This document shows, one piece after another, positions 16,155-36,854 of a stretch of 64,000 nt of DNA (positions within the stretch are counted from its first letter, which is position 1; every line of letters begins with the position of its first letter). Position numbers and translations under genes: made by a program. The stretch is taken from the NCBI RefSeq assembly GCF_023266535.1, contig NZ_JAHFPY010000002.1:10217-74216 (forward strand), read 5' to 3'. The notes under the pieces were generated by a model that was not told where the DNA came from, searched no databases, and saw only the letters and a program-made list of their open reading frames with translations. This DNA comes from Sphingomonas sp. (lineage in GTDB: Bacteria; Pseudomonadota; Alphaproteobacteria; Sphingomonadales; Sphingomonadaceae).

Positions 16155-18135
<1,981 letters not shown>

Positions 18136-18139
<4 letters not shown>

Positions 18140-18690
18140 CGGGTCAGCAGTTGATAGATGACGGCGCCGGCGGTCAGCACCATGCCGAGCAGGAATAGGG
18201 TGAAGCTCCAGTAGAGCCAGCTGTATTTGTCGTCCCGCAGGACCTTGCCATGGTCGTACAGATCGGCAGCCAGCCGACGGTAAGTCTCCTCCTCCGACGA
18301 CAACACCCTGACCATTTCCGCGATGTAATCCTCACGACGCGCATTTGCATAGCTGCCGAAGAAGAGGACGTTGATCTTTTCTTGCGGGATCGGGACCTTG
18401 CTCGCGCGCATCCGATTTGGCCGGATGGTCAAAACTCCGAACACTGTCGCGATGAAGGAGAAAACCGTCAGGACCAGCAATGGCACGCTGGCCTTGCCAT
18501 CGGCAATGTCACCGATCGACAAAGAGAAAACAACGAAACTGGCGCCCATCAAGATGGAAGCCTTGTTGTCGGCCATCTCGGACATCGCCAGATTGCCTTC
18601 GTACGCAGCAACAAGGAGGTTGTGGACCTCCTTCGGAAAGACCGGATCGTTCGGGCTTACAAGTTTCGGCTCGCCGCCGCCTTCACTCAT
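18136..18690 (-). CDS. Pycsar-effector-like / DUF5706-like 2-TM membrane protein
   Basis: Contains the motif MADNKASILMGASFVVFSLSI, a second TM helix (LLVLTVFSFIATVFGVLTI), FFGSY and a C-terminal KYSWLYWSFTLFLLGMVL helix. Preferred start is MSEGGG at 18690, with a GGGGA-like SD. In-frame upstream starts exist up to 18786. Many A/T-ending codons compared with neighbouring genes. Confidence 0.6.
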
Positions 18691-18795
18691 TGCCTGTCCC
18701 CTTGCCTGGCTCATTGCCATGCAAGCTCGGAATGCCGCCGGAAGCAAGCCTTTAGAGAATGCCCGCCTTCGGATGAAGGCGGGCACGCTGGGAAT

Positions 18796-19908: not shown

Positions 19909-20154
19909 ATGACCGACCGAGCCGAGACCGACGCCAGGGTGAAATCCCTGATCGAACCGTTCAACAAGAAAGGGATCGAGGTCACCGACGCGACCCGGTT
20001 CGCCCAGGACCTGGAGTGGGACAGCCTGACCGTGCTCGACTTCGTCGCCAACGTCGAAGACGAGTTCGACATCCTCATCACCATGAACCAGCAGGCCGAG
20101 ATCGAGACCGTCGCCCAGCTGGTCGATGCCGTCGGCAAGCTGAAGGCCGCCTGA
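19909..20154 (+). CDS. acyl carrier protein (sphingolipid-associated type)
   Basis: 81 aa with the LEWDSLTVLDFV phosphopantetheine-attachment (DSL) motif. Lies 1 nt upstream of spt. Confidence 0.9.
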   Translation: MTDRAETDARVKSLIEPFNKKGIEVTDATRFAQDLEWDSLTVLDFVANVEDEFDILITMNQQAEIETVAQLVDAVGKLKAA

Positions 20155-20155
20155 G

Positions 20156-21358
20156 TTGAGCGACCTGTTCAGCAAATTCGATCCGCTGATCGAGACCCGC
20201 GACCAACTGCTGTCGACCGGTATCACCGACCCGTTCGGGCTGGTGATGGAGGAAGTGGTGTCGCCGACCGTCGCCATCTGCAACGGCCGCAAGACCATCC
20301 TGCTCGGCACCTATAATTATATGGGCATGACCTTCGACCCCGACGTGATCGAGGCAGGCAAGAAGGCGCTCGACGAATTTGGCTCCGGCACGACCGGCAG
20401 CCGCGTCCTCAACGGCACCTATGTCGGCCACAGGGCGGTCGAGGAGGCGCTCAAGGACTTTTACGCCATGGACCATGCCATGGTGTTTTCGACCGGCTAC
20501 CAGGCCAACCTCGGGATCATTTCGACGATGGCCGGCAAGGATGACTACATCATCCTCGATATCGACAGCCATGCGTCCATCTATGACGGCTGCGCGATGG
20601 GCAACGCCCAGATCGTTCCCTTCCGCCACAATGACATCGACGCGCTCGAAAAGCGGCTCGGCCGCCTGCCCGAGGGAGCGGGCAAGCTGGTCGTGCTGGA
20701 GGGCGTCTATTCGATGCTCGGCGATATCGCGCCGTTGAAGGAAATGGTCGCCGTGTCAAAGGCGGCCGGCGCGATGGTGCTGGTCGACGAGGCCCATTCG
20801 ATGGGCTTCATCGGCGAGAACGGCCGTGGCGTCGCCGAGGCGCAGGGCGTGATCGACGATGTCGATTTCATCATCGGCACCTTCTCCAAGTCGGTCGGAA
20901 CGGTCGGCGGCTTCTGCGTCTCCAACCATCCCAAGTTCGAGATATTGCGGCTCGTCTGCCGGCCCTATGTGTTCACCGCCTCGCTGCCGCCGAGCGTGGT
21001 CGCCACCGCCGCAACCTCGATCCGCAAGCTCATGCACGGCTCCAACAAGCGTGCGCATCTTTGGGAAAACAGCAAGAAGCTGCACGGCGGCCTGAAGCAG
21101 CTTGGCTTCACGCTGGGCACCGACCAACCGCAGTCGGCGATCATCGCCGTGATCATGCCTGACCTGGAACGCGGCGCGGCGATGTGGGAAGCGCTGCTCC
21201 ACGAAGGGCTGTACGTGAACCTCGCTCGGCCGCCCGCCACGCCGGCCGGGATGACCCTGCTCAGGTGCTCGCTCTGCGCCGAGCATTCGAGCGAGCAGGT
21301 CGACGAAATTCTCGGCATGTTCGAAGCGGCGGGGCGAAAGACCGGCGTGATCGGTTGA
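20156..21358 (+). CDS. spt: serine palmitoyltransferase (alpha-oxoamine synthase family)
   Basis: Near-collinear resemblance to Sphingomonas paucimobilis SPT, including LSKFD, LLGTYNYMGMTFDPDVI, SHASIYDG, VLEGVYSMLGDIAPLKEMVAV, DEAHSMGF, GTFSKSVGTVGGF (PLP lysine) and ARPPATPAG. TTG start. Confidence 0.93.
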   Translation: MSDLFSKFDPLIETRDQLLSTGITDPFGLVMEEVVSPTVAICNGRKTILLGTYNYMGMTFDPDVIEAGKKALDEFGSGTTGSRVLNGTYVGHRAVEEALKDFYAMDHAMVFSTGYQANLGIISTMAGKDDYIILDIDSHASIYDGCAMGNAQIVPFRHNDIDALEKRLGRLPEGAGKLVVLEGVYSMLGDIAPLKEMVAVSKAAGAMVLVDEAHSMGFIGENGRGVAEAQGVIDDVDFIIGTFSKSVGTVGGFCVSNHPKFEILRLVCRPYVFTASLPPSVVATAATSIRKLMHGSNKRAHLWENSKKLHGGLKQLGFTLGTDQPQSAIIAVIMPDLERGAAMWEALLHEGLYVNLARPPATPAGMTLLRCSLCAEHSSEQVDEILGMFEAAGRKTGVIG

Positions 21359-21419
21359 GCCGGGGAACCACTCCCTATTGGGGGTTTCGCGCGGTGAATC
21401 CGGCGGTTACACTGACACC

Positions 21420-23423
21420 ATGACGCCAGCGGAAGAACCCAGGTTCGACTGGCGCCGCGGGGGCGCCGCGGCGGTAGCGTTGCTCGCCACGCTGGTATTG
21501 CTGGGCATGGTCGTGCTGGTGGCGATGACCAACAGCGCCCGCGACCAGGCGCTGCAGGCCGAGCGCCACGCTTATGACGTTGCCCTGCTGACCCGCACCG
21601 CCGATGCCAGCATTGCTCGCGCCGAAGCAGCGGTCGGCCGCTTCGCGCTGGACCGGGACCCGGACAAGAGTGGTAACCGCTACCTTGCCCAATGGCGCCT
21701 CGCCCAGCAGCAGATCACGCAGCTCGAGCGATCGGTTTCGAGCGATCCCGAGCAGCGGCGCCGGGTCGACGACCTGCGCCAATTGTTCAACGAGCGAGGC
21801 CAGCAGTTCAGCGACGTCGCCCGCTACAGCGGGGCCAAGCAAAAGGATTACGGGCTTCGCTATTATTATGCCATTTCACTCCCCCAGCCGGGCGAGAAAG
21901 ACGACACCGGCACCAAGCTAAGGGCGAAGCTGGGCGAAATCGCCAATGCCGAGCGAGCGGGCCTTTCGAAGCGGATCGAAGTGTCGCAACTCTTCTCGGC
22001 CGAGGCCGACCGGCTGACCGACTATCTCAGCTGGCTGGGCGTGATCGTCGGCCTGTTCGCGATCTTCATGGGCTATATCGCGGTCCAGGCGCTGCGGCAG
22101 AATGTCGCGGTCCGCAAGGAAGCCGAGTCCGAATTCGAGCGCGCCCAGGTGCTGGAGCTGGCGGTTCGCGAACGCACCCAGGAGCTGTGGGAAGCCAACC
22201 AGGCGCTGAAGGCCGAGGCAATCGAGCGCCAGGCGGCCGAGGCGCAGCTGCGCCAGGTGCAGAAAATGGAAGCGGTTGGCCAGCTGACCGGCGGCATCGC
22301 CCACGACTTTAACAACATGCTGGCGGTCGTGGTGGGTGGAATCGACCTCGCCCGGCGCCGGCTCGACGGCCCGCGGCGCGAGGTGATGGCCCACCTCACC
22401 AACGCCATGGAAGGCGCAACGCGCGCGGCGGCGCTGACGCGTCGGCTGCTGTCCTTTGCCCGCTCCGAACCGCTGCTGCCCGAGAGGCTCGACACGGCCG
22501 TGCTGCTGGGCGGGATGAGCGAGCTGCTCGACCGGACGCTCGGCGAACGGATCAAGGTCTCGACCAAGCTGGCCGAGGAAGCCTGGCCGGTGTTCGTCGA
22601 CCCGCACCAGCTTGAAAATGCGATCCTCAACCTGGCGGTCAATGCGCGGGACGCGATGGACGGGACGGGCAAGCTTGTGATCCGCACCCGCAACAAGTCG
22701 ATGCAGGCCAATGCGGTCGGCGATATCCGCGCCGGAGAATATCTGGTGATTGAAGTCACCGACACCGGCTGCGGCATGACTACCGAGGTCAAGGAGCGGG
22801 CATTCGAGCCGTTCTTCACCACCAAGTCGGTTGGCAAGGGAACGGGGTTGGGCCTCAGCCAGATTTTCGGCTTCGCCCACCAGTCGGGCGGCGAGGTCGG
22901 CATCGAGAGCCAGGTCGGCAAGGGCACGACGGTTTCGATTTACCTGCCGCGGACCGACGCCCAGCCCAACAACGTTCGCGCCCACCCGGCAACGCAGGTT
23001 AAGGCGGAGGATGACATGACCGTGCCGGGAGCGCGCATCCTGCTGGTCGAGGACGATCCGCGGGTTAGGACGGCCACCATCGGGGCGCTGGAAGATCTTG
23101 GTTATGAGCCGATCGCCTGCTCGAGCGGCGCCGAAGCATTGGCGCTGTTCGACAGCATGGAATTCGACCTGGTGATTTCCGACGTGATCATGCCGGAAAT
23201 GACCGGGCCGGAGATGGTTCGCGAACTAAAGACCCGCCGGGGCGATATCGCCATTTTGTTCGTCACCGGCTATGTCGGCGAAGGCGAAAGCGACGATCTG
23301 GTCGGTCACGACCTGTTGAGGAAGCCGTTTACGGTCAGCACGCTGGCCAGCGCGGTTACGGGTGCGCTTTCCCGCCGCTCTAGCGTATCGCGCCCGATCG
23401 GAGGAGCCGCGGCAGCAGGCTGA
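21420..23423 (+). CDS. CHASE3-type hybrid sensor histidine kinase / response regulator
   Basis: N-terminal TM helix, a periplasmic CHASE3-like region and a second TM helix. Coiled coil, H-box [12 protein letters not shown] and G boxes ([22 protein letters not shown]), and a C-terminal REC domain ([22 protein letters not shown]). Confidence 0.9.
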
Positions 23424-24243
23424 TCGCGGCCAGCAGCGGATGCCGCTTCTGCCACGGCTTCAATTCAATGCTGGTTCCAGCGTGGCGGTTGATCTTCCAG
23501 GCAATATATTCCGCTCCGCCGGCATAGGTGGCACTGGCCTTGGCCAGCCGCAGGACGGACAGCAACTTCCCTTCGAAACGCCGGCGGAGCCACCCGCCAC
23601 CCGGGATCGCGGGGTCGATTGAGGCCACAACCGCCGGTGAGAAACGCTCATATCGTTCGAGGTCGGCATCGACCACCGAGCCGGACCGGCCCTTGCGCTC
23701 GGCGCGGAGTTCGGCGGAGTAGGTCAACGAGAAAGCCCGGCGCCACCAATGGAGCACGGACTCACCGTCAATCTTGCCCGCAGCGGCCAATAGTGTCGGA
23801 GCGGCCCGCGACACCGCCGCAATTGCCGCCGCGCGCGCTGCCTCATCCGAGCTCCACACCAGCCGCGAGGGCTGGGCAAAGCGCGCCCAAACCGAGACAT
23901 TTCGCGTTTCCGGACCGTTGAGGCGGTAGAAGTCGCGCTCGCTGAGCACCGCATATTTGGCTGCCAATCCGCCTTGCTGGAACGGGAAGACATTGGGCGG
24001 GATCAGCGCATTGGCCCTAGCCAGCGATGGCTTATCATAGGCCGAAGGATAGTCGGACACGATCAGGTAGAAATCGAGCATTAGCCCGTCGAGCTGCTTT
24101 TCGCGGAGGCAACTGCCGTAAAACAGGACCGCCCGGCTGGCCGCCCCGTGCCGTGCAGCAATGGCTTCAGCCATGGCCTTTGCGCGGGGATCGACCGGCT
24201 GGTCGAGCTCGGCCTCGACGAGGTCGCGAAGTACTTGAGTCAT
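23380..24243 (-). CDS. Tam41/Mmp37-like protein (putative lipid-phosphate cytidylyltransferase)
   Basis: By-eye matches to yeast Tam41: FYGSCL vs GYGSGV, MLDFYLIV vs QIDIILGV, NVFPF..G..KYAVLS vs VYFNPF..KYGVVS, VWARFAQP vs YLAGRLQKP, SLTYSAELR vs ALSYAGDIR, ERYERF vs KNFERF, and EYIAWKI vs KYAWAK. Confidence 0.7.
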   Translation of the reverse strand: MTQVLRDLVEAELDQPVDPRAKAMAEAIAARHGAASRAVLFYGSCLREKQLDGLMLDFYLIVSDYPSAYDKPSLARANALIPPNVFPFQQGGLAAKYAVLSERDFYRLNGPETRNVSVWARFAQPSRLVWSSDEAARAAAIAAVSRAAPTLLAAAGKIDGESVLHWWRRAFSLTYSAELRAERKGRSGSVVDADLERYERFSPAVVASIDPAIPGGGWLRRRFEGKLLSVLRLAKASATYAGGAEYIAWKINRHAGTSIELKPWQKRHPLLAAISLLPRLLRSGAIR

Positions 24244-24252
24244 CGCGTCGCC

Positions 24253-25230
24253 TCAGGCGGCGATGCGGACAAACGACAGCGGCTGGGCCGGCCGCAGCAG
24301 GATCGGCTTGCCAACCCCGGCGCGGAAGGTCTCGCCATCGAGGATGACCCGGCTGGATTCGCCTTCGATCGCAATCTCGTCGGCTTCCTCGACATGGACG
24401 CCGTCCAGCTTGGTCCGCCCCAGCCGGCCGACCATGCTGGCAAAAAAGGCGCGTAGCAGCGACACCGGCTTCTGTTCGACGGCGACGAATTTCAGCGGCC
24501 CTCGGCTATGGGCGCTGAAGTCGCCGGAAAGCAGCAACTTCTCGAGGGTTGTGACGAACAGGAAAGAAAAGCGGGCCGTAATAGCGCCTTCGCGGCGTAC
24601 GCTAATACTGAGCGGCATCGGTTCTGGCGGGAGGAAGCTCGCGCGGAGCCGGAAAACCTGGGCCAGCACGACCGCGACAGCGGTTATGAAATGGCTGATG
24701 CTGTTGGGCAGGCCGAGCGGATAGACCCGTTCCCGGCAGTAAAGCATGATGTCTGCCAGCCCGGCCCCGCCCATGAACATGCCGATCACCGGCTTGATCC
24801 CGGTCTCGCCACCCGACAATGAAATCAGTTCGCGCGCCACCAGGTGAGGCGACATGTCGGCGCGGGCGATGGCCAGCAATTTCTCAAGCGCATCAACCGG
24901 ATCGCCCTGCACCCCGAGGTCGAGCGCAATCAAATTGGTCTTGCCGCTCGGCAGTACCGCCACCGGCGGCGCGGCGGTGCCAAAATGGCCGCCATTATGC
25001 AGCTCGGTCAGTACCGCCTGGACGGTGCCGTCGCCGCCGTTGATCGCCAGCACCGCCGGATCGATCCGCGCGATGGTTCGCATCGCCTCGCCGATCTGGC
25101 TGGCCTGCTCCACCTCATAATGGAAAATGTCGGGATGTTCGGCACAGAAGGCACGGATACGCGGCAGCTGGGCAAGATTGCCCGTCGATTTGGGATTGCT
25201 GATCAAGGCGATCCGCAGCCGCGCCATCAA
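24253..25230 (-). CDS. diacylglycerol-kinase-fold lipid kinase (YegS/BmrU-like); candidate ceramide or DAG kinase
   Basis: DAGK catalytic-domain pattern: RIALISNPKS, AINGGDGTV and VLPSGKTNL. 9 bp upstream of the Tam41-like gene and a 4-bp overlap with the DUF2141-like gene. Confidence 0.8.
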   Translation of the reverse strand: MMARLRIALISNPKSTGNLAQLPRIRAFCAEHPDIFHYEVEQASQIGEAMRTIARIDPAVLAINGGDGTVQAVLTELHNGGHFGTAAPPVAVLPSGKTNLIALDLGVQGDPVDALEKLLAIARADMSPHLVARELISLSGGETGIKPVIGMFMGGAGLADIMLYCRERVYPLGLPNSISHFITAVAVVLAQVFRLRASFLPPEPMPLSISVRREGAITARFSFLFVTTLEKLLLSGDFSAHSRGPLKFVAVEQKPVSLLRAFFASMVGRLGRTKLDGVHVEEADEIAIEGESSRVILDGETFRAGVGKPILLRPAQPLSFVRIAA

Positions 25231-25727
25231 CTGCCCACGCGTCCAACACTGAGGCCCCTCATATAAACAAGCGTAACCCCGACCCGTGATGGGCCGTTTC
25301 CGACCGTGAATGCGGCCTTGGCGTAGGGCGGTTTCGGATTGAACAGGCTAACCTTGGGATCCCGTGAATAGCCGCCGCCATCCTGACGGTCGCGCTCCCC
25401 GTTGACGTTGAGGTCGTGATGGACCGACAGCGCATAGCGTCCCGGGGCCGGCACCGGCACGCAAATGTCCATCGACCGGGCAGTGACCGGAACCTTGACC
25501 TTGCTGATCCGGCCTCCCTTGGCCAACCAGAGGTTGGCGTCGGAGCCATATAGCGTCACCTTGACCTTGCCAGCGGGCTGCTTGAACCCGGCAACATGGA
25601 CGACCACCGACGGCTTTCCGGCCGCGCAGCCGGTCGATGCCGCCACCGGCTGGGCCGCGGCATGCGAGGTCGCCGCCGCCGCCAGGGCTGCGCCACCGAT
25701 CGCCAGAGGGACCGCCGATTTGGACAT
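25227..25727 (-). CDS. DUF2141-like periplasmic protein
   Basis: Signal peptide MSKSAVPLAIGGAALAAAATSHAAA, followed by a beta-rich domain containing VHHDLNVNGERDRQDGGGYSRDP, which matches the typical DUF2141 HDxNxNGxxD motif. Confidence 0.7.
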   Translation of the reverse strand: MSKSAVPLAIGGAALAAAATSHAAAQPVAASTGCAAGKPSVVVHVAGFKQPAGKVKVTLYGSDANLWLAKGGRISKVKVPVTARSMDICVPVPAPGRYALSVHHDLNVNGERDRQDGGGYSRDPKVSLFNPKPPYAKAAFTVGNGPSRVGVTLVYMRGLSVGRVGS

Positions 25728-25849
25728 GATTTTCCCAGCCGCTCCGCTATAGGCACAAACGGCGCCGCTGCTCTGCCCATTCCCCCCAATTCGGAATCGG
25801 CATGTCTCGACGCCCCGGTTTCCATGTCGGCCCGCTTTGCGGCCAAATC

Positions 25850-27100
25850 ATGGTGCCGCGTGGACGAAAACATGCTCTGAAGGGCCCAAGATTGCAGTTG
25901 GTCGATCGCTACCTTGCGCGCAGCATCGCCGTCCCGCTGATCGGGACGCTGGTGCTGGCGGCAATGCTGCTGGTGCTCGACAAGATGCTGAGGCTGTTCG
26001 ACTTCGTCATCAATGCCGGCGGGCCGGTCAGCGTCGTGTGGCGGATGCTGGCCAATTTGCTGCCCGAATATTTCTCGCTGGGCATCCCGATCGGACTGCT
26101 GCTCGGGATCATCCTGGCGTTCCGCAAGCTGGCCTTGTCGTCGGAGCTCGACGCAATGCGCGGGATCGGCATCAGCTACGGCCGGCTGCTGCGTATTCCC
26201 TACATGTTCGCGGTCGGCCTGTTGCTGGTCAACATCGCCATCGTCGGCTGGGTCGATCCCTATGCCCGCTACCGCTACGAGGGCCTGCGGTTCGAGCTCA
26301 AATCCGGTGCGCTGGGCGCGTCAATCAAGGTCGGCGAGTTCAACCAGTTCGGCAAGCGCATGACGTTGAGGATCGACCGCAGCGAGAAGAATGGCACTCG
26401 CCTGCACGGCATTTTCACCGCGCTTGACGACAAGTCGGGAACCCGCATCGCCGCAACGGCGGCCGAGGGCCAATTCCTGTCTACCGATGATCCGGACACC
26501 ATCATCTTCCGGCTGAAACGGGGCCGCTTGATCCAGGAAGGAGTCAATTTCGCCACTCCCCGGACCTTGTCGTTCAACAGCTATGATTTGCCGATCAACA
26601 TGCCCGCAACCGACTCTTTCCGCGGCCGCGGCGACGAGGAAAAGGAGCTGGTCCTGCCCGAGGTTTATGCCCGGGCCTATGGCGGTGCGGCGCCGGACCA
26701 CAAGGCCAATTTGGCCGCGCGCGCCAACCTTCATTTCCGGCTGGTCGAAATCGCGATGATGCTGATGCTGCCGCTGCTCGGCGTTGCCCTGGCCGTCCCG
26801 CCCAAGCGCAGCAACAGCTCGCTCGGCATCTTCGTCGGGATCGTCCTGGTGGTCACCTACCACAAGATCAACCAATATGCCGAAGGAGCCGGCGCCCAGG
26901 GCCGGCTGCAGCCCGAGCTGGCGCTGTGGCTGCCGTTCGTGGCGCTGGTCGCGCTGATTGCCTGGATGTACCATGTCATCGCCCACCGCCCGGGGGGCCA
27001 ACCGATCGGCGCGCTCGAAGCGGCCTTCTCCAAGCTCGGCAAGGCGGTGCGCAAGGTCACGCCGCAGCGGCAGTTCAAACGGATTGAGGCGGCGGCATGA
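25850..27100 (+). CDS. lptF: LptF/LptG family permease (LptF-like)
   Basis: LVDRYLARSIAVPLIGTLVLAAMLLVLDKML N-terminus, six TM segments and a central periplasmic domain. The start is ambiguous between ATG 25850 and TTG 25892, which would give MQLVDRYL. Confidence 0.85.
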   Translation: MVPRGRKHALKGPRLQLVDRYLARSIAVPLIGTLVLAAMLLVLDKMLRLFDFVINAGGPVSVVWRMLANLLPEYFSLGIPIGLLLGIILAFRKLALSSELDAMRGIGISYGRLLRIPYMFAVGLLLVNIAIVGWVDPYARYRYEGLRFELKSGALGASIKVGEFNQFGKRMTLRIDRSEKNGTRLHGIFTALDDKSGTRIAATAAEGQFLSTDDPDTIIFRLKRGRLIQEGVNFATPRTLSFNSYDLPINMPATDSFRGRGDEEKELVLPEVYARAYGGAAPDHKANLAARANLHFRLVEIAMMLMLPLLGVALAVPPKRSNSSLGIFVGIVLVVTYHKINQYAEGAGAQGRLQPELALWLPFVALVALIAWMYHVIAHRPGGQPIGALEAAFSKLGKAVRKVTPQRQFKRIEAAA

Positions 27101-28194
27101 TCAATCTCGATTTCATGCCCTCGCGCCAGCTGGCGCTCTACGCCGCGAGGCTGTTCCTGACCCGCAGCCTGGCGGTACTGATCATGCTGGTGCTGGTGCT
27201 GATGACGCTCGACCTGCTGGGCGAATCCGGCAAGATTTTGAAGGTCCCGGGCAACAGCGAAGCGGAGCTATGGCGCTATGTTTCGCTGCGCATTCCCCAA
27301 CTAGTCTCCAAATTCCTGCCATTCTCGGTGTTGCTGGGCGCGCTGATTGCCTTTGCCGGGCTCAACCAGCACAGCGAAGTGGTATCGATGAAGGCCGCGG
27401 GCCTGTCGGCCCACCAGATCCTGGCGCCGATGATTGCCGCCAGCTTTGGCGTGGCTTTGCTCCTGTTCGCGTTCAACGAGCTGGTGGTGGTGAAGTCGGC
27501 CCGCACGCTCGATGCCTGGAGCGACGCTGATTACAAGCCGATCCCGCCATCGAGCGGCATCCTGTCCAACGTCTGGATCCGCGACGGCAATGACATGGTC
27601 CGCGCCCTCATCGTCACCGGGCAGGGCGAACGCACGCGGCTCCAGGACGTCACTATCTACGATCGCGAGAGCGACGGGCTGGCCAGGGTCATGAATGCCG
27701 ACAGCGGCGAACGTGTGGCCGGTGCCTGGAAGCTCGACAATGTCCGCACTTACGACGCGCGAATGAACATCGTCATGAAGCAGCCGAGCGTGATTGTGCT
27801 CAAAGATGTTGAACCAGCCCGCTTCACCCTTGCTCAAATCGATCCGGAGGAGCGCGATTTCGTCGCCCTGAGGCAGGAAATCCAAGCACTGGAGGCAGCC
27901 GGAAGGCCGACCGAAGAGGCCCGGACCGGCTGGTGGCACAAGATCAGCGGACCCTTGTCGACAGTGCTGATGCCCCTCCTGGCGGCGACCGCCGCGTTCG
28001 GGCTGGCCCGTTCGGGCCGCGTCCTGCTCCGCGCGACGATCGGCATGGCGCTCGGCTTTGCCTATTTCGTCGCCGACAATTTCAGCGTGGCGCTGGGCAA
28101 TTATGGCGCCTACCCGCCGTTCCTCGCCGCCTGGGCGCCATTCCTGCTGTTCCTGCTAATCGGCGAGTTCGTCCTGATCAGGCAGGAAGAATAG
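27097..28194 (+). CDS. lptG: LptF/LptG family permease (LptG-like)
   Basis: 365 aa with YjgP/YjgQ topology. Its start overlaps the lptF stop by 4 bp. Confidence 0.85.
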   Translation: MINLDFMPSRQLALYAARLFLTRSLAVLIMLVLVLMTLDLLGESGKILKVPGNSEAELWRYVSLRIPQLVSKFLPFSVLLGALIAFAGLNQHSEVVSMKAAGLSAHQILAPMIAASFGVALLLFAFNELVVVKSARTLDAWSDADYKPIPPSSGILSNVWIRDGNDMVRALIVTGQGERTRLQDVTIYDRESDGLARVMNADSGERVAGAWKLDNVRTYDARMNIVMKQPSVIVLKDVEPARFTLAQIDPEERDFVALRQEIQALEAAGRPTEEARTGWWHKISGPLSTVLMPLLAATAAFGLARSGRVLLRATIGMALGFAYFVADNFSVALGNYGAYPPFLAAWAPFLLFLLIGEFVLIRQEE

Positions 28195-28234: not shown

Positions 28235-29341
28235 CTAGCGGCCCTTCCAGCTCGACACGGCGAGCCGGGCCACCAATGGCGACAGTCCGCGATAATTGGC
28301 GTCGAAATAGACCGAGTTCGGCGCAAGCGAGGATTTGAGACGCCGGTGCGCTTCGCCCAGCGCATGGTAAGGGACGCCGGGGAGCAGGTGATGCAGCGCA
28401 TGGTAGCGCAGGCCGACCGGTGCCCACAGCGCCGGCAACACGCCCGGCGGCGGAACATTGACGCTGTCGAGATATTGCTCGGTGACGCTCATCGGCTCGC
28501 CGTCATTTTCCCACAGGTGCGCGACTAGCGTCCGGATCTGGTTGAGGAACATCACGCCAGCGGAAATAGCGAGGAAGATCAAGAAGGCGCGGAGCGGAAT
28601 ATTGCCCGTTGCGACCAATGCCAGGAGCGTGATCGCCCAAAGGCTCGCCGCTGTTTCCTGAATCATCCAGCGCGTCCGGAATTCACCAGTCGGCGCGGGC
28701 CGGCGAAAGCGCGGGTTGATTTGTAGACCGGAATATTTGGCAACCACCGCCTCGCGCAGCTTCGGCGACAGCAGCGACAGCGGCGCCAGGATGCCGAAGC
28801 GGATCAACATGCCGACCGGCGCCAGCGCGGCGGCAATCAGGAACACCGGCAATGTCCACGGATGCATCAGCGCCAGCGGCAAATACTCCGGGTCCTCGGC
28901 GGTGCCATAATAAGTCTTGGCATGATGCTGGTTGTGGACCCCTTCATACATGAAGGACGGCACCAGCAGCGGCACCCCAACCAGAGCGTTCCACGCCCAG
29001 TAAAAGCCCGGAACCGCATTGGGCTTCACATGGGTAATCTCGTGAATGAAGCTGCCAGCCCGATAAAGCGCCAGGATCGCGACAAGACCCGCTACCACGC
29101 CAATAAGCGTGGACGGCGCGGCAATCGTCGCAGCCAGCGCGCCATATCCCAACAGGGCCGAACCAAGCATGTCGGCCCAGTATATTGCCGGCCTGGCGAC
29201 ATTGAGGTCGCGGGTCAGGCTGGCCGCGGCCTTGAGCATGGCCTTGTCGTCGCCGTGCGGGGCACGCGCGGCCTCGCCGGCGGCAGCCGGGCCCGTTTCA
29301 CGGTCAAGGGCGACGGATTCGTTCATGGGAGGATGGGCCAC
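28235..29341 (-). CDS. membrane fatty acid desaturase family protein
   Basis: Three histidine boxes (HEITH, HNQHH and HHLLPGVPYH) with intervening TM helices. Confidence 0.85.
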   Translation of the reverse strand: MAHPPMNESVALDRETGPAAAGEAARAPHGDDKAMLKAAASLTRDLNVARPAIYWADMLGSALLGYGALAATIAAPSTLIGVVAGLVAILALYRAGSFIHEITHVKPNAVPGFYWAWNALVGVPLLVPSFMYEGVHNQHHAKTYYGTAEDPEYLPLALMHPWTLPVFLIAAALAPVGMLIRFGILAPLSLLSPKLREAVVAKYSGLQINPRFRRPAPTGEFRTRWMIQETAASLWAITLLALVATGNIPLRAFLIFLAISAGVMFLNQIRTLVAHLWENDGEPMSVTEQYLDSVNVPPPGVLPALWAPVGLRYHALHHLLPGVPYHALGEAHRRLKSSLAPNSVYFDANYRGLSPLVARLAVSSWKGR

Positions 29342-31097: not shown

Positions 31098-31655
31098 ATG
31101 AGCCTCGACCTTGACCGCGCCGTATTGTTGCCGATCGATATGCAGCAAGCGTTCGATGACCCCAAATGGCCGCCCCGCTGGAACGGCCAGATCGACGCCA
31201 ACGGCCTGGCGCTGATCCGTCACTGGCGCGAGCGGGGCCGGCCGATCATCCACGTCCGGCACGATTCGATTTTCCCCGATTCAACGCTTCACCCGGCCAG
31301 CGCCGGGAACCGGCATCGCCCAGGGTTTGAGCCACAAGGCGACGAGCCGCTAGTGACCAAGGGCGTCAACAGCGCCTTCATTGGCACCGACCTCGACCTT
31401 CGGCTGAAGCGGTTGGGGGCCCGGCATGTAGTGACCTTCGGCATTTCAACCGACATGTGCGTTTCGACCACCATCCGCACCGGGGCCAACATGGGCTGGG
31501 ACATGATCCTGGCGGACGATGCGAGCGACTGCTTCGAGCTGCCTGACGCCAACGGCAAGATCATTCCGGCCAAAGCGATTCAAGCCGCCCATGTGGCGAC
31601 GCTTGGCTTTGAATTCTGTCGGGTGATGAAGACGGGCGAATTGTTGGCGGCTTAG
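31098..31655 (+). CDS. cysteine hydrolase / isochorismatase family protein
   Basis: AVLLPIDMQQAF, HVRH, KGVNSAF, and VTFGISTDMCVSTT carrying the catalytic Cys. Start taken as MSLDLDRA at 31098. Confidence 0.85.
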   Translation: MSLDLDRAVLLPIDMQQAFDDPKWPPRWNGQIDANGLALIRHWRERGRPIIHVRHDSIFPDSTLHPASAGNRHRPGFEPQGDEPLVTKGVNSAFIGTDLDLRLKRLGARHVVTFGISTDMCVSTTIRTGANMGWDMILADDASDCFELPDANGKIIPAKAIQAAHVATLGFEFCRVMKTGELLAA

Positions 31656-32425
31656 GACAGTTCGATCGCTACCGGCGCGTGGTCGGACGCTTTCTCCTCG
31701 CCCCGCGCCCATTTGTGGACCTCGGCGCCGCGCAGCCGGTCGGCCGCCTGCGGCGAGCAAAGCAAATGGTCAATGCGGAAGCCGGCGTCGCGCGGCCAGG
31801 CGCCCGCCGTATAATCCCAGAATGTGTAGAGTCGGTCATCGTCCGGGTGCAGCAACCTTAGCGCATCGGTCCAGCCCTGGTTGACGATCCGCCGAAAGGC
31901 GGCCTGGCTTTCCGGCTGAAACAGCGCGTTATTGGCCATGGCCCGCCGCGAAAAAGTGTCGCGGTCCTCCGGGATGACATTATAGTCGCCGGCCAGCACC
32001 GCCGGCCGCTCCTCGGCGAGGATCGACGCCGCACGCTCCCGCAAGCGGTCCATCCATTTGAGCTTGTAGTCGAACTTCTCGGTGCCGATCGGATTGCCGT
32101 TGGGCAGGTAGATCGACGCGACTACCAGGCCGTCGATGTCGGCTTCGATATAGCGGCTGTGGCTGTCGTCGGGATCGCCGGGCAGGCCCAGCTGACGAAG
32201 CTCCGGCTGCTTGCCCTTGGCGAGGATGGCGACGCCGTTGAAGCCCTTCTGGACGTGCCACACGGCATGGTAGCCGGCGCCCTCGATCTCGCCGATCGGC
32301 AGCGCGTCGTCGGCGCATTTCAATTCCTGGAGGCAGACGATGTCGGGTTGCTCGCGATCGAGATATTCGAGCAGGCGCTGCAGCCGGGCGCGAATGCCGT
32401 TGAGGTTGTAGGTGACAAGCTTCAC
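31652..32425 (-). CDS. xthA: exodeoxyribonuclease III
   Basis: MKLVTYNLNGIRARL...DIVCLQELK...SDHAPV motifs of the EEP-fold AP endonuclease. Confidence 0.93.
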   Translation of the reverse strand: MKLVTYNLNGIRARLQRLLEYLDREQPDIVCLQELKCADDALPIGEIEGAGYHAVWHVQKGFNGVAILAKGKQPELRQLGLPGDPDDSHSRYIEADIDGLVVASIYLPNGNPIGTEKFDYKLKWMDRLRERAASILAEERPAVLAGDYNVIPEDRDTFSRRAMANNALFQPESQAAFRRIVNQGWTDALRLLHPDDDRLYTFWDYTAGAWPRDAGFRIDHLLCSPQAADRLRGAEVHKWARGEEKASDHAPVAIELS

Positions 32426-34152: not shown

Positions 34153-35273
34153 ATGTTGACGAACACCCCGCCTGCGGTGCGCCCGTTGCGCCCGCATTTT
34201 TCATCCGGTCCCTGCGCCAAGCCGCCGGGCTGGTCTCCCGACAAGATAGACACCCGTATTCTTGGCCGGTCGCATCGCAGCGGCCTTGGCAAGGAACGGC
34301 TCAAGCTCGCCATCGACCTGATGCGCGAGATGCTGGCGCTGCCCGATACGCATCGCATCGGCATCGTGCCCGGATCCGACACCGGCGCATTTGAAATGGC
34401 GATGTGGACCATGCTGGGCGCGCGGCCGGTGACGACCCTGGCCTGGGAGAGCTTCGGCGAGGGCTGGGTGACCGATGCGGTCAAGCAGCTGAAGCTCGAC
34501 CCGACCGTGATCCGCGCCGATTATGGCGAGTTGCCCGATCTCAAGCAGGTCGACTGGTCAAACGATGTCCTGTTCACCTGGAACGGTACGACGAGCGGCG
34601 TGCGCGTGCCGAACGGCGATTGGATACCGGCCGACCGCGAGGGCCTATCCTTCGCCGATGCGACCAGCGCGGTGTTCGCCTACGACCTGCCGTGGGACAA
34701 GATCGATGTCGCCACCTTCAGCTGGCAAAAGGTGCTGGGCGGCGAAGGCGGCCATGGTGTGCTGATCCTCGGCCCCCGCGCGGTCGGGCGACTGGAGAGC
34801 TACACGCCCGACCGGCCGCTGCCGAAGATCTTCCGCCTCACAAAGGGTGGAAAGCTGATCGAAGGCATCTTCACCGGCGAGACGATCAATACCCCGTCGA
34901 TGCTGGCGGTCGAGGACGCGATTGTCGCGCTGGAATGGGCGCGCTCCGTCGGCGGGTTCGAGGGGCTGAAGGCCCGGACCGAAGCGAACGCCGCGGCACT
35001 GGACAGGATTGTCGAAGGCCGCAACTGGCTTGGCTACCTCGCACAACGCCCTGAAATCCGGTCGAAAACCAGCGTCTGCCTGACCGTCGACGGCGCCGAC
35101 AATGACTTCATCAAGCGTTTCGCCAAGCTGATCGAAGTCGAGGACGCCGCATACGACATCGCCGGCTACCGCGACGCCCCGCCGGGCCTCCGCATCTGGT
35201 GCGGGGCGACCGTCGACACCGCCGACATCGAGGCCCTCGGGCCATGGCTCGACTGGGCCTGGGAGCAACTAAA

Positions 35274-35277
<4 letters not shown>
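34153..35277 (+). CDS. serC: phosphoserine aminotransferase (alphaproteobacterial type)
   Basis: AAGGAG 4 nt before ATG 34153. [18 protein letters not shown] and [14 protein letters not shown] motifs. Translationally coupled to serA. Confidence 0.92.

Positions 35278-36854
<1,577 letters not shown>

Follow-up and report, generated by a model that had tools for sequence, protein, structure and literature searches.

What does an operon that pairs a lipid kinase with a relative of mitochondrial Tam41 do in a sphingomonad? The question is raised by three genes at positions 23380-25727 of a 64,000-nucleotide stretch of Sphingomonas sp. DNA (the window; contig NZ_JAHFPY010000002.1, positions 10,217 to 74,216, assembly GCF_023266535.1), which encode a DUF2141-family protein of 166 amino acids (aa), a 325-aa kinase of the diacylglycerol kinase (DAGK) fold, and a 287-aa protein that an initial annotation likened to Tam41. 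That annotation proposed a two-step route from lipid to lipid phosphate to cytidine diphosphate (CDP)-activated lipid, and suggested ceramide rather than diacylglycerol (DAG) as the substrate. We find, with a probability of roughly three in four, that the operon is the Sphingomonadales cpgB-cpgC module of phosphosphingolipid synthesis, located within a sphingolipid locus. The interpretation offered by the initial annotation is partly supported: a kinase and a Tam41-fold enzyme linked to the serine palmitoyltransferase gene spt are indeed present, and its central hypothesis, a putative nucleotide-activated ceramide step, is correct in spirit. However, the idea is not new, and the statement that no characterized bacterial pathway was known is wrong for the gene pair, which represents the cpgB/cpgC step of ceramide-phosphoglycerate (CPG) synthesis and has been mapped in Sphingomonadales (PMC11324152). 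[quoted passage not shown]

The three same-strand open reading frames (ORFs) are tightly packed, as originally described. At the junction between the DUF2141 and kinase genes (...GGC AGT TGA TGG CG...), the frames overlap by 4 bp (25227-25230) if the kinase is taken to start at TTG 25230, whereas the overlap shrinks to 1 bp (TGATG) if the start is ATG 25227, which is probably the correct one. The kinase and 287-aa frames are joined as TGA ggcgacgcg ATG, giving a 9-bp gap (24244-24252), with GAGG serving as the Shine-Dalgarno sequence. When 23.0-26.2 kb was scanned for promoters and terminators, no signal exceeded shuffle expectation. Of 571 genomes with a match, we compared 80 loci, all from Sphingomonadales, in a search that did not reach the Caulobacter loci and in which the genomes closest to the window locus belong to Sphingomicrobium and Sphingomonas. 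In 79 of these loci the 287-aa gene is immediately preceded by the kinase gene, with a median of 7 nt between the two; the one locus that differs is on a 2-kb contig. Likewise, a DAGK_cat gene is immediately upstream in all five distant family members that we inspected (34-43% identity to the 287-aa protein), four of which reside in full Caulobacter-type clusters that also contain AMP-binding/aasR, cerR, acyl carrier protein, spt, LptF/G, CDP-OH_P_transf, Metallophos and NTP-transferase genes. Because the homologue family of the 287-aa protein comprises more than 1,200 clusters (1,223 representative clusters at E≤1e-3) and the pair is syntenic in 79 of 80 genomes, the arrangement is more than chance; the operon is real and well conserved. 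The expectation that the whole trio would be conserved together with spt held for the pair and for spt itself (66 of 80 loci), but not for the DUF2141 gene: where the kinase and lptF2 genes occur together, in 74 loci, it accompanies them in 48.

The operon sits in a sphingolipid locus that spans 17.2-30.6 kb of the window and is flanked by housekeeping genes (Table 1). In order along the window, the locus contains cerR, a PycTM-like gene, acpR, spt, a hybrid sensor kinase gene, the operon, lptF2/G2, a desaturase gene and bCerS. The 3' end of the operon is 2.0 kb from the end of spt, matching the distance of about 2 kb first given. The features that characterize the CpgC family, an adjacent kinase gene together with spt, acpR, cerR, bCerS and lptF2/G2 in the same locus, are all found here, and the last of these is represented by two adjacent PF03739 permease genes.

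The published orthologues of Sphingomonas wittichii, Swit_3897-3908 (Olea-Ozuna 2024 Fig 7; Uchendu 2026), occur in the gene order of the window, with Swit_3897 assigned as cerR, 3899 as acpR, 3900 as spt, 3905/3906 as lptF2/G2 and 3908 as cerS (PMC11324152). Of most relevance to the operon, Swit_3903 is the orthologue of Caulobacter CC_1160 (cpgB) and Swit_3902 that of CC_1161 (cpgC), the latter at 39% identity and E=8e-44 (PMC11324152, S2B Table). The additional window genes fit the unassigned S. wittichii tags 3898, 3901, 3904 and 3907, and those papers do not cover the DUF2141, hybrid sensor kinase, PycTM-like and desaturase genes. Similar to the window, both Caulobacter crescentus CpgC (CCNA_01219/CC_1161) and Swit_3902 are encoded directly after a ceramide kinase gene in an spt locus, and distant members of the window CpgC family sit in Caulobacter-type clusters. 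In contrast to Caulobacter, the pair in the window is separated from spt by the hybrid sensor kinase gene and is preceded by DUF2141, and cpgA, cpgD and CC_1153/CC_1158-like genes are not in the window; a tblastn search of the window gave no homologue of cpgD, CC_1153, CC_1158 or aasR. According to published data, the counterparts of cpgA, cpgD, CC_1153 and CC_1158 sit elsewhere in the S. wittichii genome.

Table 1. Genes of the sphingolipid locus, in positions of the window; loci are the 80 Sphingomonadales loci, and L083 is a distant Caulobacter-type cluster.
Feature	Coordinates	Strand	Evidence
CerR-type short-chain dehydrogenase/reductase (SDR)	17222..18139	+	Epimerase/NAD_binding Pfam; 37% identity (E=1e-47) to L083 cerR
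PycTM (Pycsar effector transmembrane) domain protein, 216 aa, between cerR and acpR	18136-18786	-	E=2e-20
Gly/Asn-rich low-complexity ORF, 322 aa	18796-19764	-	GC content at third codon positions (GC3) 0.79
AcpR-type specialized acyl carrier protein	19909..20154	+	PP-binding E=1.4e-7; 56/80 loci
Serine palmitoyltransferase (Spt)	20156..21358	+	NCBIfam NF047603 (SerpalmtaseAlphaP) E=4.8e-246, above cut-off; 66/80 loci
Hybrid sensor kinase, CHASE3-HisKA-HATPase-REC	21378..23423	+	Pfam; 68/80 loci at same position
CpgC-type protein, 287 aa, predicted remote Tam41-fold nucleotidyltransferase acting after the kinase	23380..24243	-	Fold, profile, synteny
Putative CpgB-type bacterial ceramide kinase, DAGK_cat fold, 325 aa	24253..25230	-	PF00781, synteny
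DUF2141-family secreted beta-sandwich protein, 166 aa, first operon gene, optional accessory	25227..25727	-	PF09912
LptF2-type permease, divergent from operon	25802..27100	+	PF03739 E=3e-59; 74/80 loci
LptG2-type permease	27097..28194	+	PF03739 E=4.8e-72; 74/80 loci
Fatty-acid desaturase/hydroxylase-family membrane protein, between lptG2 and bCerS	28235..29341	-	PF00487 E=4.3e-27; 45/80 loci
bCerS-type ceramide synthase, 380 aa	29427..30569	+	46% identity (E=1e-103) to 379-aa L083 gene; position matches Swit_3908

The middle gene product matches the Pfam model DAGK_cat (E=3.4e-14) and carries the catalytic GGDGT motif, already recognized by the initial annotation, at residues 65-69. The CxxxCxxC motif of eukaryotic enzymes is not found in the 325-aa protein, the two cysteines of which are isolated. 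This combination, DAGK_cat with GGDG and no CxxxCxxC, in a gene adjoining cpgC in sphingolipid producers, is shared with Caulobacter CpgB (CCNA_01218/CC_1160) and supports the assignment of the window protein, a DAGK-fold lipid kinase, as a predicted CpgB-type ceramide kinase. Within the clade, sequences are poorly conserved: identity between the window kinase and the DAGK from one Caulobacter-type cluster is 27% (E=1e-11), and the literature gives 25% for CC_1160 and Swit_3903. Ceramide kinase activity is known for CCNA_01218 only.

Genetic data from Caulobacter bear directly on the substrate. Deletion of CCNA_01218 (cpgB) removes ceramide-phosphate, CPG and CPG2, whereas deletion of CCNA_01219 (cpgC) leads to accumulation of ceramide-phosphate and loss of CPG and CPG2 (Zik et al. 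2022; PMC9393093). Furthermore, CpgB (CCNA_01218) is a ceramide kinase in vitro (bioRxiv 2023.05.01.538943). Given that CpgB acts as a ceramide kinase and that ΔcpgC accumulates ceramide-phosphate, the suggestion that the operon serves ceramide rather than DAG is supported, by analogy with these orthologues.

For the 287-aa protein, resemblance to Tam41 is below ordinary detection, because no sequence match was obtained from Pfam or NCBIfam, even at E=10, or to any Tam41 in the Protein Data Bank (PDB). The PDB searches (phmmer with the single sequence and hmmsearch with a 77-sequence profile) yielded only chance matches to LHCA3 and a weak nucleotidyltransferase (NTase) match at E=0.14. Nevertheless, eight of the 77 diverse relatives individually touch the Tam41_Mmp37 model PF09139 (best E=1.1e-6), six touch the Pol-beta NTase model, and a profile-profile alignment of the family with Tam41 by hhalign gave E=2.5e-5 and a probability of 75% over 160 columns, the probability being 58% in a local rerun. 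In UniRef, relatives of the protein are labeled 'Phosphatidate cytidylyltransferase'. The comparison of predicted with solved structures that had been called for also points to Tam41. An AlphaFold2 model built from 128 homologues is confident (predicted local distance difference test (pLDDT) 87.5, predicted template modeling (pTM) score 0.84), and Tam41 chains account for five of the top six PDB structures that Foldseek matched to it (E 5e-6 to 6e-5, template modeling (TM) score 0.45-0.49, approximately 0.47). These chains are 7ECD, the Firmicutes Tam41 (FbTam41) with CTP-Mg, and 6IG2 and 6IG4, the Schizosaccharomyces pombe Tam41 (SpTam41). Rank 3 is occupied by 3C18, an uncharacterized nucleotidyltransferase-like protein, and 3C18 and other NTases, including aminoglycoside nucleotidyltransferases, reach a TM score of only ~0.30 with the model. 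The model combines an NTase domain with a C-terminal helical domain, the arrangement of the Tam41 fold with its C-terminal helical/winged-helix domain, at a TM score below 0.5.

The sequences of SpTam41 and FbTam41 were taken from the PDB chains; the search bait was an approximate TAMM41 fragment, and the returned sequences alone were used as data. All seven blocks by which the protein was originally likened to Tam41 are present in the product. Six of them fall in register in the profile alignment, namely FYGSCL with GYGSGVF, MLDFYLIV with MIDFIFQV, KYAVLS with KYGVTS, WARFAQP with AGRFQKP, SLTYSAELR with SLSYLGDIR, and ERYERF with FFRKLY, but the seventh, EYIAWKI, falls past the aligned region. 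As a reference for conserved Tam41 positions, we used the residues identical between the two solved sequences. Among the 22 family positions that are at least 90% conserved, 19 align to such Tam41-invariant positions (background 44%, binomial P=5.5e-5), and 11 residues are identical in the 287-aa protein and both solved Tam41s: Y42, G43, S44, D57, K96, R121, P125, A147, Y175, R180 and E182. D57 is the single canonical NTase acidic residue that is kept, the +2 position being non-acidic, and Tam41 likewise keeps one acidic residue at the canonical metal-binding motif (PMC11646218). The active-site signature of Tam41, in which the YGS loop is joined by a lone acidic side chain on beta2 and by basic residues that are also conserved, is therefore present, and the shared NTase motifs can be written YGS...D, KY, RFxxP and Y..[DE].R...E.

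There is no transmembrane segment in the 287-aa protein (maximum 19-residue hydropathy 1.38), and residues 267-285 show the top hydrophobic moment of the protein (0.49) with a net positive charge and may form a basic amphipathic helix like the membrane-binding one at the C-terminus of Tam41 (PMC7018664). Like Tam41, the protein is predicted to be soluble or peripheral rather than integral to the membrane. Collectively, the model and the shared residues support its assignment as a candidate remote Tam41-fold nucleotidyltransferase with a Tam41-like active site. CC_1161 itself resembles the window family in size (~290-300 aa) and in its link, at family level, to the Tam41 entry IPR015222 of InterPro, a domain already noted by Olea-Ozuna et al. 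2024 (PMC11324152). A further suggestion, that an alphaproteobacterial homologue would be informative about how the mitochondrial enzyme arose, is weak: the protein is ~21% identical to SpTam41, compared with 44% for the Firmicutes Tam41, and we rejected it as ancestor-like kin of the mitochondrial enzyme.

The first gene of the operon encodes a protein that matches PF09912 at E=1.4e-17 with 64 bits against a cut-off of 24.4, in agreement with its earlier designation as a DUF2141-like periplasmic protein. A protein recorded at NCBI under 'Sphingomonas sp.' is 100% identical to it. All 120 of its listed homologues carry the same domain, its N-terminus is signal-peptide-like, and two cysteines, C34 and C89, are invariant in the family. 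Whether it belongs functionally with the other two genes, or is an unrelated passenger between two divergent sphingolipid operons, is close to an even bet that leans slightly toward membership. The gene is missing from 26 of the 74 close loci, and because the gap there measures 63-155 nt and leaves no room for it, the absence is genuine. It is also not present in four of the five distant loci, all four being Caulobacter-type clusters. DUF2141 genes additionally adjoin the carotenoid gene crtG in Sphingomonadales (PMC5989583), and a Foldseek search with the AlphaFold2 model (pLDDT 64.8, moderate) returned only generic beta-sandwich folds, including pilins, cyclodextrin glucanotransferase (CGTase) domains and transthyretin-like folds, at a TM score of ~0.3; all of this would suit a passenger. 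Against this, the gene, wherever present, immediately precedes the kinase gene in the same orientation, overlaps the kinase start in the window, and recurs in a DUF2141-DAGK_cat-CpgC trio that, in a distant clade, is not part of any sphingolipid cluster. That trio (locus L086, 5460-7966) is isolated, as its 12.9-kb contig contains neither spt nor lpt genes, which suggests that the trio can act as a separate module. The DUF2141 gene is best viewed as a lineage-variable accessory, and what was described as a 'trio' amounts to the pair with one further, optional gene.

Two further observations concern the same genes. The L086 trio adjoins a XerC-like integrase gene. In addition, the best-conserved part of the DUF2141 protein is a loop at residues 103-121, HHDxNxNGxxDRxDGGGxS, that is conserved in the family and appears to resemble a motif of the Dx[DN]xDG type that binds metal (Ca2+); the loop has a pLDDT below 50 and could not be modeled.

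How, then, might the pair work? As shown for orthologues, the kinase would first turn ceramide into ceramide-1-phosphate, and the 287-aa protein would then act on this product, a substrate indicated by the Caulobacter genetics. For the reaction itself, by analogy with Tam41 and its substrate phosphatidate, we tentatively favor transfer of cytidine monophosphate (CMP) from cytidine triphosphate (CTP) to ceramide-1-phosphate, yielding CDP-ceramide and pyrophosphate (PPi), although we would place its odds a little short of even. This chemistry is proposed because the active-site residues of Tam41 are shared and because ΔcpgD, which is unable to produce CDP-glycerate, still makes CPG (PMC12275187). 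Since ΔcpgD keeps CPG, the first glycerate does not come from CDP-glycerate, and activation must lie on the ceramide-phosphate side. A separate enzyme, or CpgC itself, would subsequently swap CMP for glycerate or phosphoglycerate to form CPG. The anionic lipid might then leave by way of the divergently encoded LptF2/G2 permeases, a role in sphingolipid export shown for these proteins in Caulobacter (bioRxiv 2026.04.12.717747), with DUF2141 as a presumed secreted, lineage-variable periplasmic accessory. If this is correct, the reaction would be analogous to that of CdsA, in which CMP passes from CTP to a lipid phosphate, even though CdsA is a polytopic membrane protein of unrelated fold and the 287-aa protein is without a transmembrane segment. 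Yeast Tam41 can contribute to the rescue of E. coli depleted of cdsA. The difference from Tam41 would lie in the substrate, as the genomic and genetic context of the 287-aa protein points to ceramide-1-phosphate and not phosphatidate. An NDP-activated ceramide made by a Tam41-like protein was already proposed in the Conclusions of Olea-Ozuna et al. 2024 (PMC11324152).

Several points weigh against the assignment or the chemistry. PF09139 does not match the 287-aa protein at E=10, let alone at the gathering score. The TM scores to Tam41 are below 0.5, the hhalign probability is just 58-75%, identity to SpTam41 is ~21%, and the C-terminal domain of the model is all-helical with no obvious winged-helix beta-hairpin. 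We know of no enzyme identified for the CMP-displacing step, an absence that also favors the alternative mechanisms of CpgC considered next. CDP-ceramide has never been reported, and the exact term was not found in the literature searched. Moreover, cpgA, which encodes a CDP-alcohol phosphotransferase, was not found in the window by tblastn, and CpgA is not required for CPG in Caulobacter. Production of CPG by sphingomonads is itself predicted rather than demonstrated, and the putative link from the window protein to Caulobacter CpgC runs through the L083 protein (34% identity, E=1e-40) and the published orthology of Swit_3902, not through a direct comparison.

CpgC could also act on ceramide-1-phosphate without being a cytidylyltransferase, by attaching glycerate directly from another activated donor, by using a different nucleoside triphosphate (NTP; such as ATP or GTP), by working as a phosphotransferase of the LicD/fukutin type, or by assisting the kinase in a non-catalytic role. 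Direct glycerate addition was proposed by Zik et al., the authors of papers from 2025 and May 2026 still term the mechanism 'unidentified', and cofitness with gluconeogenic genes hints at a donor derived from phosphoenolpyruvate (PEP) or phosphoglycerate; nor can nucleotide specificity be read from the sequence. However, the residues in common with Tam41 coincide exactly with those that are invariant in the family (G43, S44, D57, K96, R121, R180 and E182), which favors conserved NTP-dependent chemistry, and esterifying a phosphate monoester directly with glycerate is unfavorable in energy terms (PMC11324152). We consider these mechanisms unlikely. Far less probable is a CdsA-independent glycerophospholipid route, in which the kinase would convert DAG to phosphatidate and the 287-aa protein would be a genuine CDP-diacylglycerol synthase like Firmicutes Tam41: although Tam41 is the best fold match, the UniRef name of the relatives agrees, CpgB is also able to phosphorylate DAG (PMC11324152 S1 Text) and FbTam41 makes CDP-DAG (PMC11646218), close and distant family members alike are embedded in spt/acpR/cerR/bCerS/LptF2G2 loci, CpgB homologues co-occur almost solely with sphingolipid genes, the family is ~21% identical to true Tam41 and under the Pfam threshold, and ΔcpgC specifically loses CPG while accumulating ceramide-phosphate.

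The preferred reading, a cpgB-cpgC module acting on ceramide, matters because anionic phosphosphingolipids can replace lipopolysaccharide in the outer membrane of Caulobacter and are the target of polymyxin there. The CpgC step is the sole unassigned step toward the first head group. A confident model, Tam41 as the top fold match, and the shared invariant residues listed above allow our analysis to offer a concrete chemistry for it, and CDP-ceramide, if it exists, would represent an activated lipid of a new class. A broader view, in which CpgC-type proteins would be CTP:ceramide-1-phosphate cytidylyltransferases, CDP-ceramide would be the sphingolipid equivalent of CDP-diacylglycerol and feed anionic head groups that vary by lineage, and DUF2141 would be a dedicated periplasmic factor for these sphingolipids, is doubtful as a whole. 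The CDP-ceramide half of that view has already been worded by Olea-Ozuna et al. 2024, and the DUF2141 link is undescribed. What is left of interest is the possible CDP-ceramide chemistry, with the structural and residue support that the model provides, together with the patchy DUF2141 gene and the conserved hybrid sensor kinase gene, both undescribed at the sphingomonad locus.

The hybrid sensor kinase gene between spt and cpgC is not in the Caulobacter cluster, and it converges on cpgC with an overlap of 44 bp between the two 3' ends; the encoded protein may be a regulator of sphingolipid synthesis. The desaturase-family protein probably modifies the sphingolipid acyl chain or long-chain base, and the analogous Caulobacter hydroxylase is encoded elsewhere in that genome. 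The PycTM-domain protein is found in 31 of the 80 related loci, and neither a cyclase nor a cyclic nucleotide monophosphate (cNMP)-binding domain is evident in association with it. The neighboring 322-aa ORF, which has no Pfam match and was not detected across the 80 related loci, is rich in Cys and Tyr toward its C-terminus and may contain an internal signal peptide.

Close by, but beyond the limits of the locus, are genes for an Exo_endo_phos (EEP) protein of the sphingomyelinase-type fold (31652-32425, minus strand) and for SerA (35199-36854, plus strand), the 3-phosphoglycerate dehydrogenase that supplies serine; their nearness to the sphingolipid genes may be coincidence. Finally, in one distant cluster (L081, 10935-12357), the cpgB-cpgC pair is followed by genes for MlaC and MlaA, which function in phospholipid transport, a further link to lipid trafficking.

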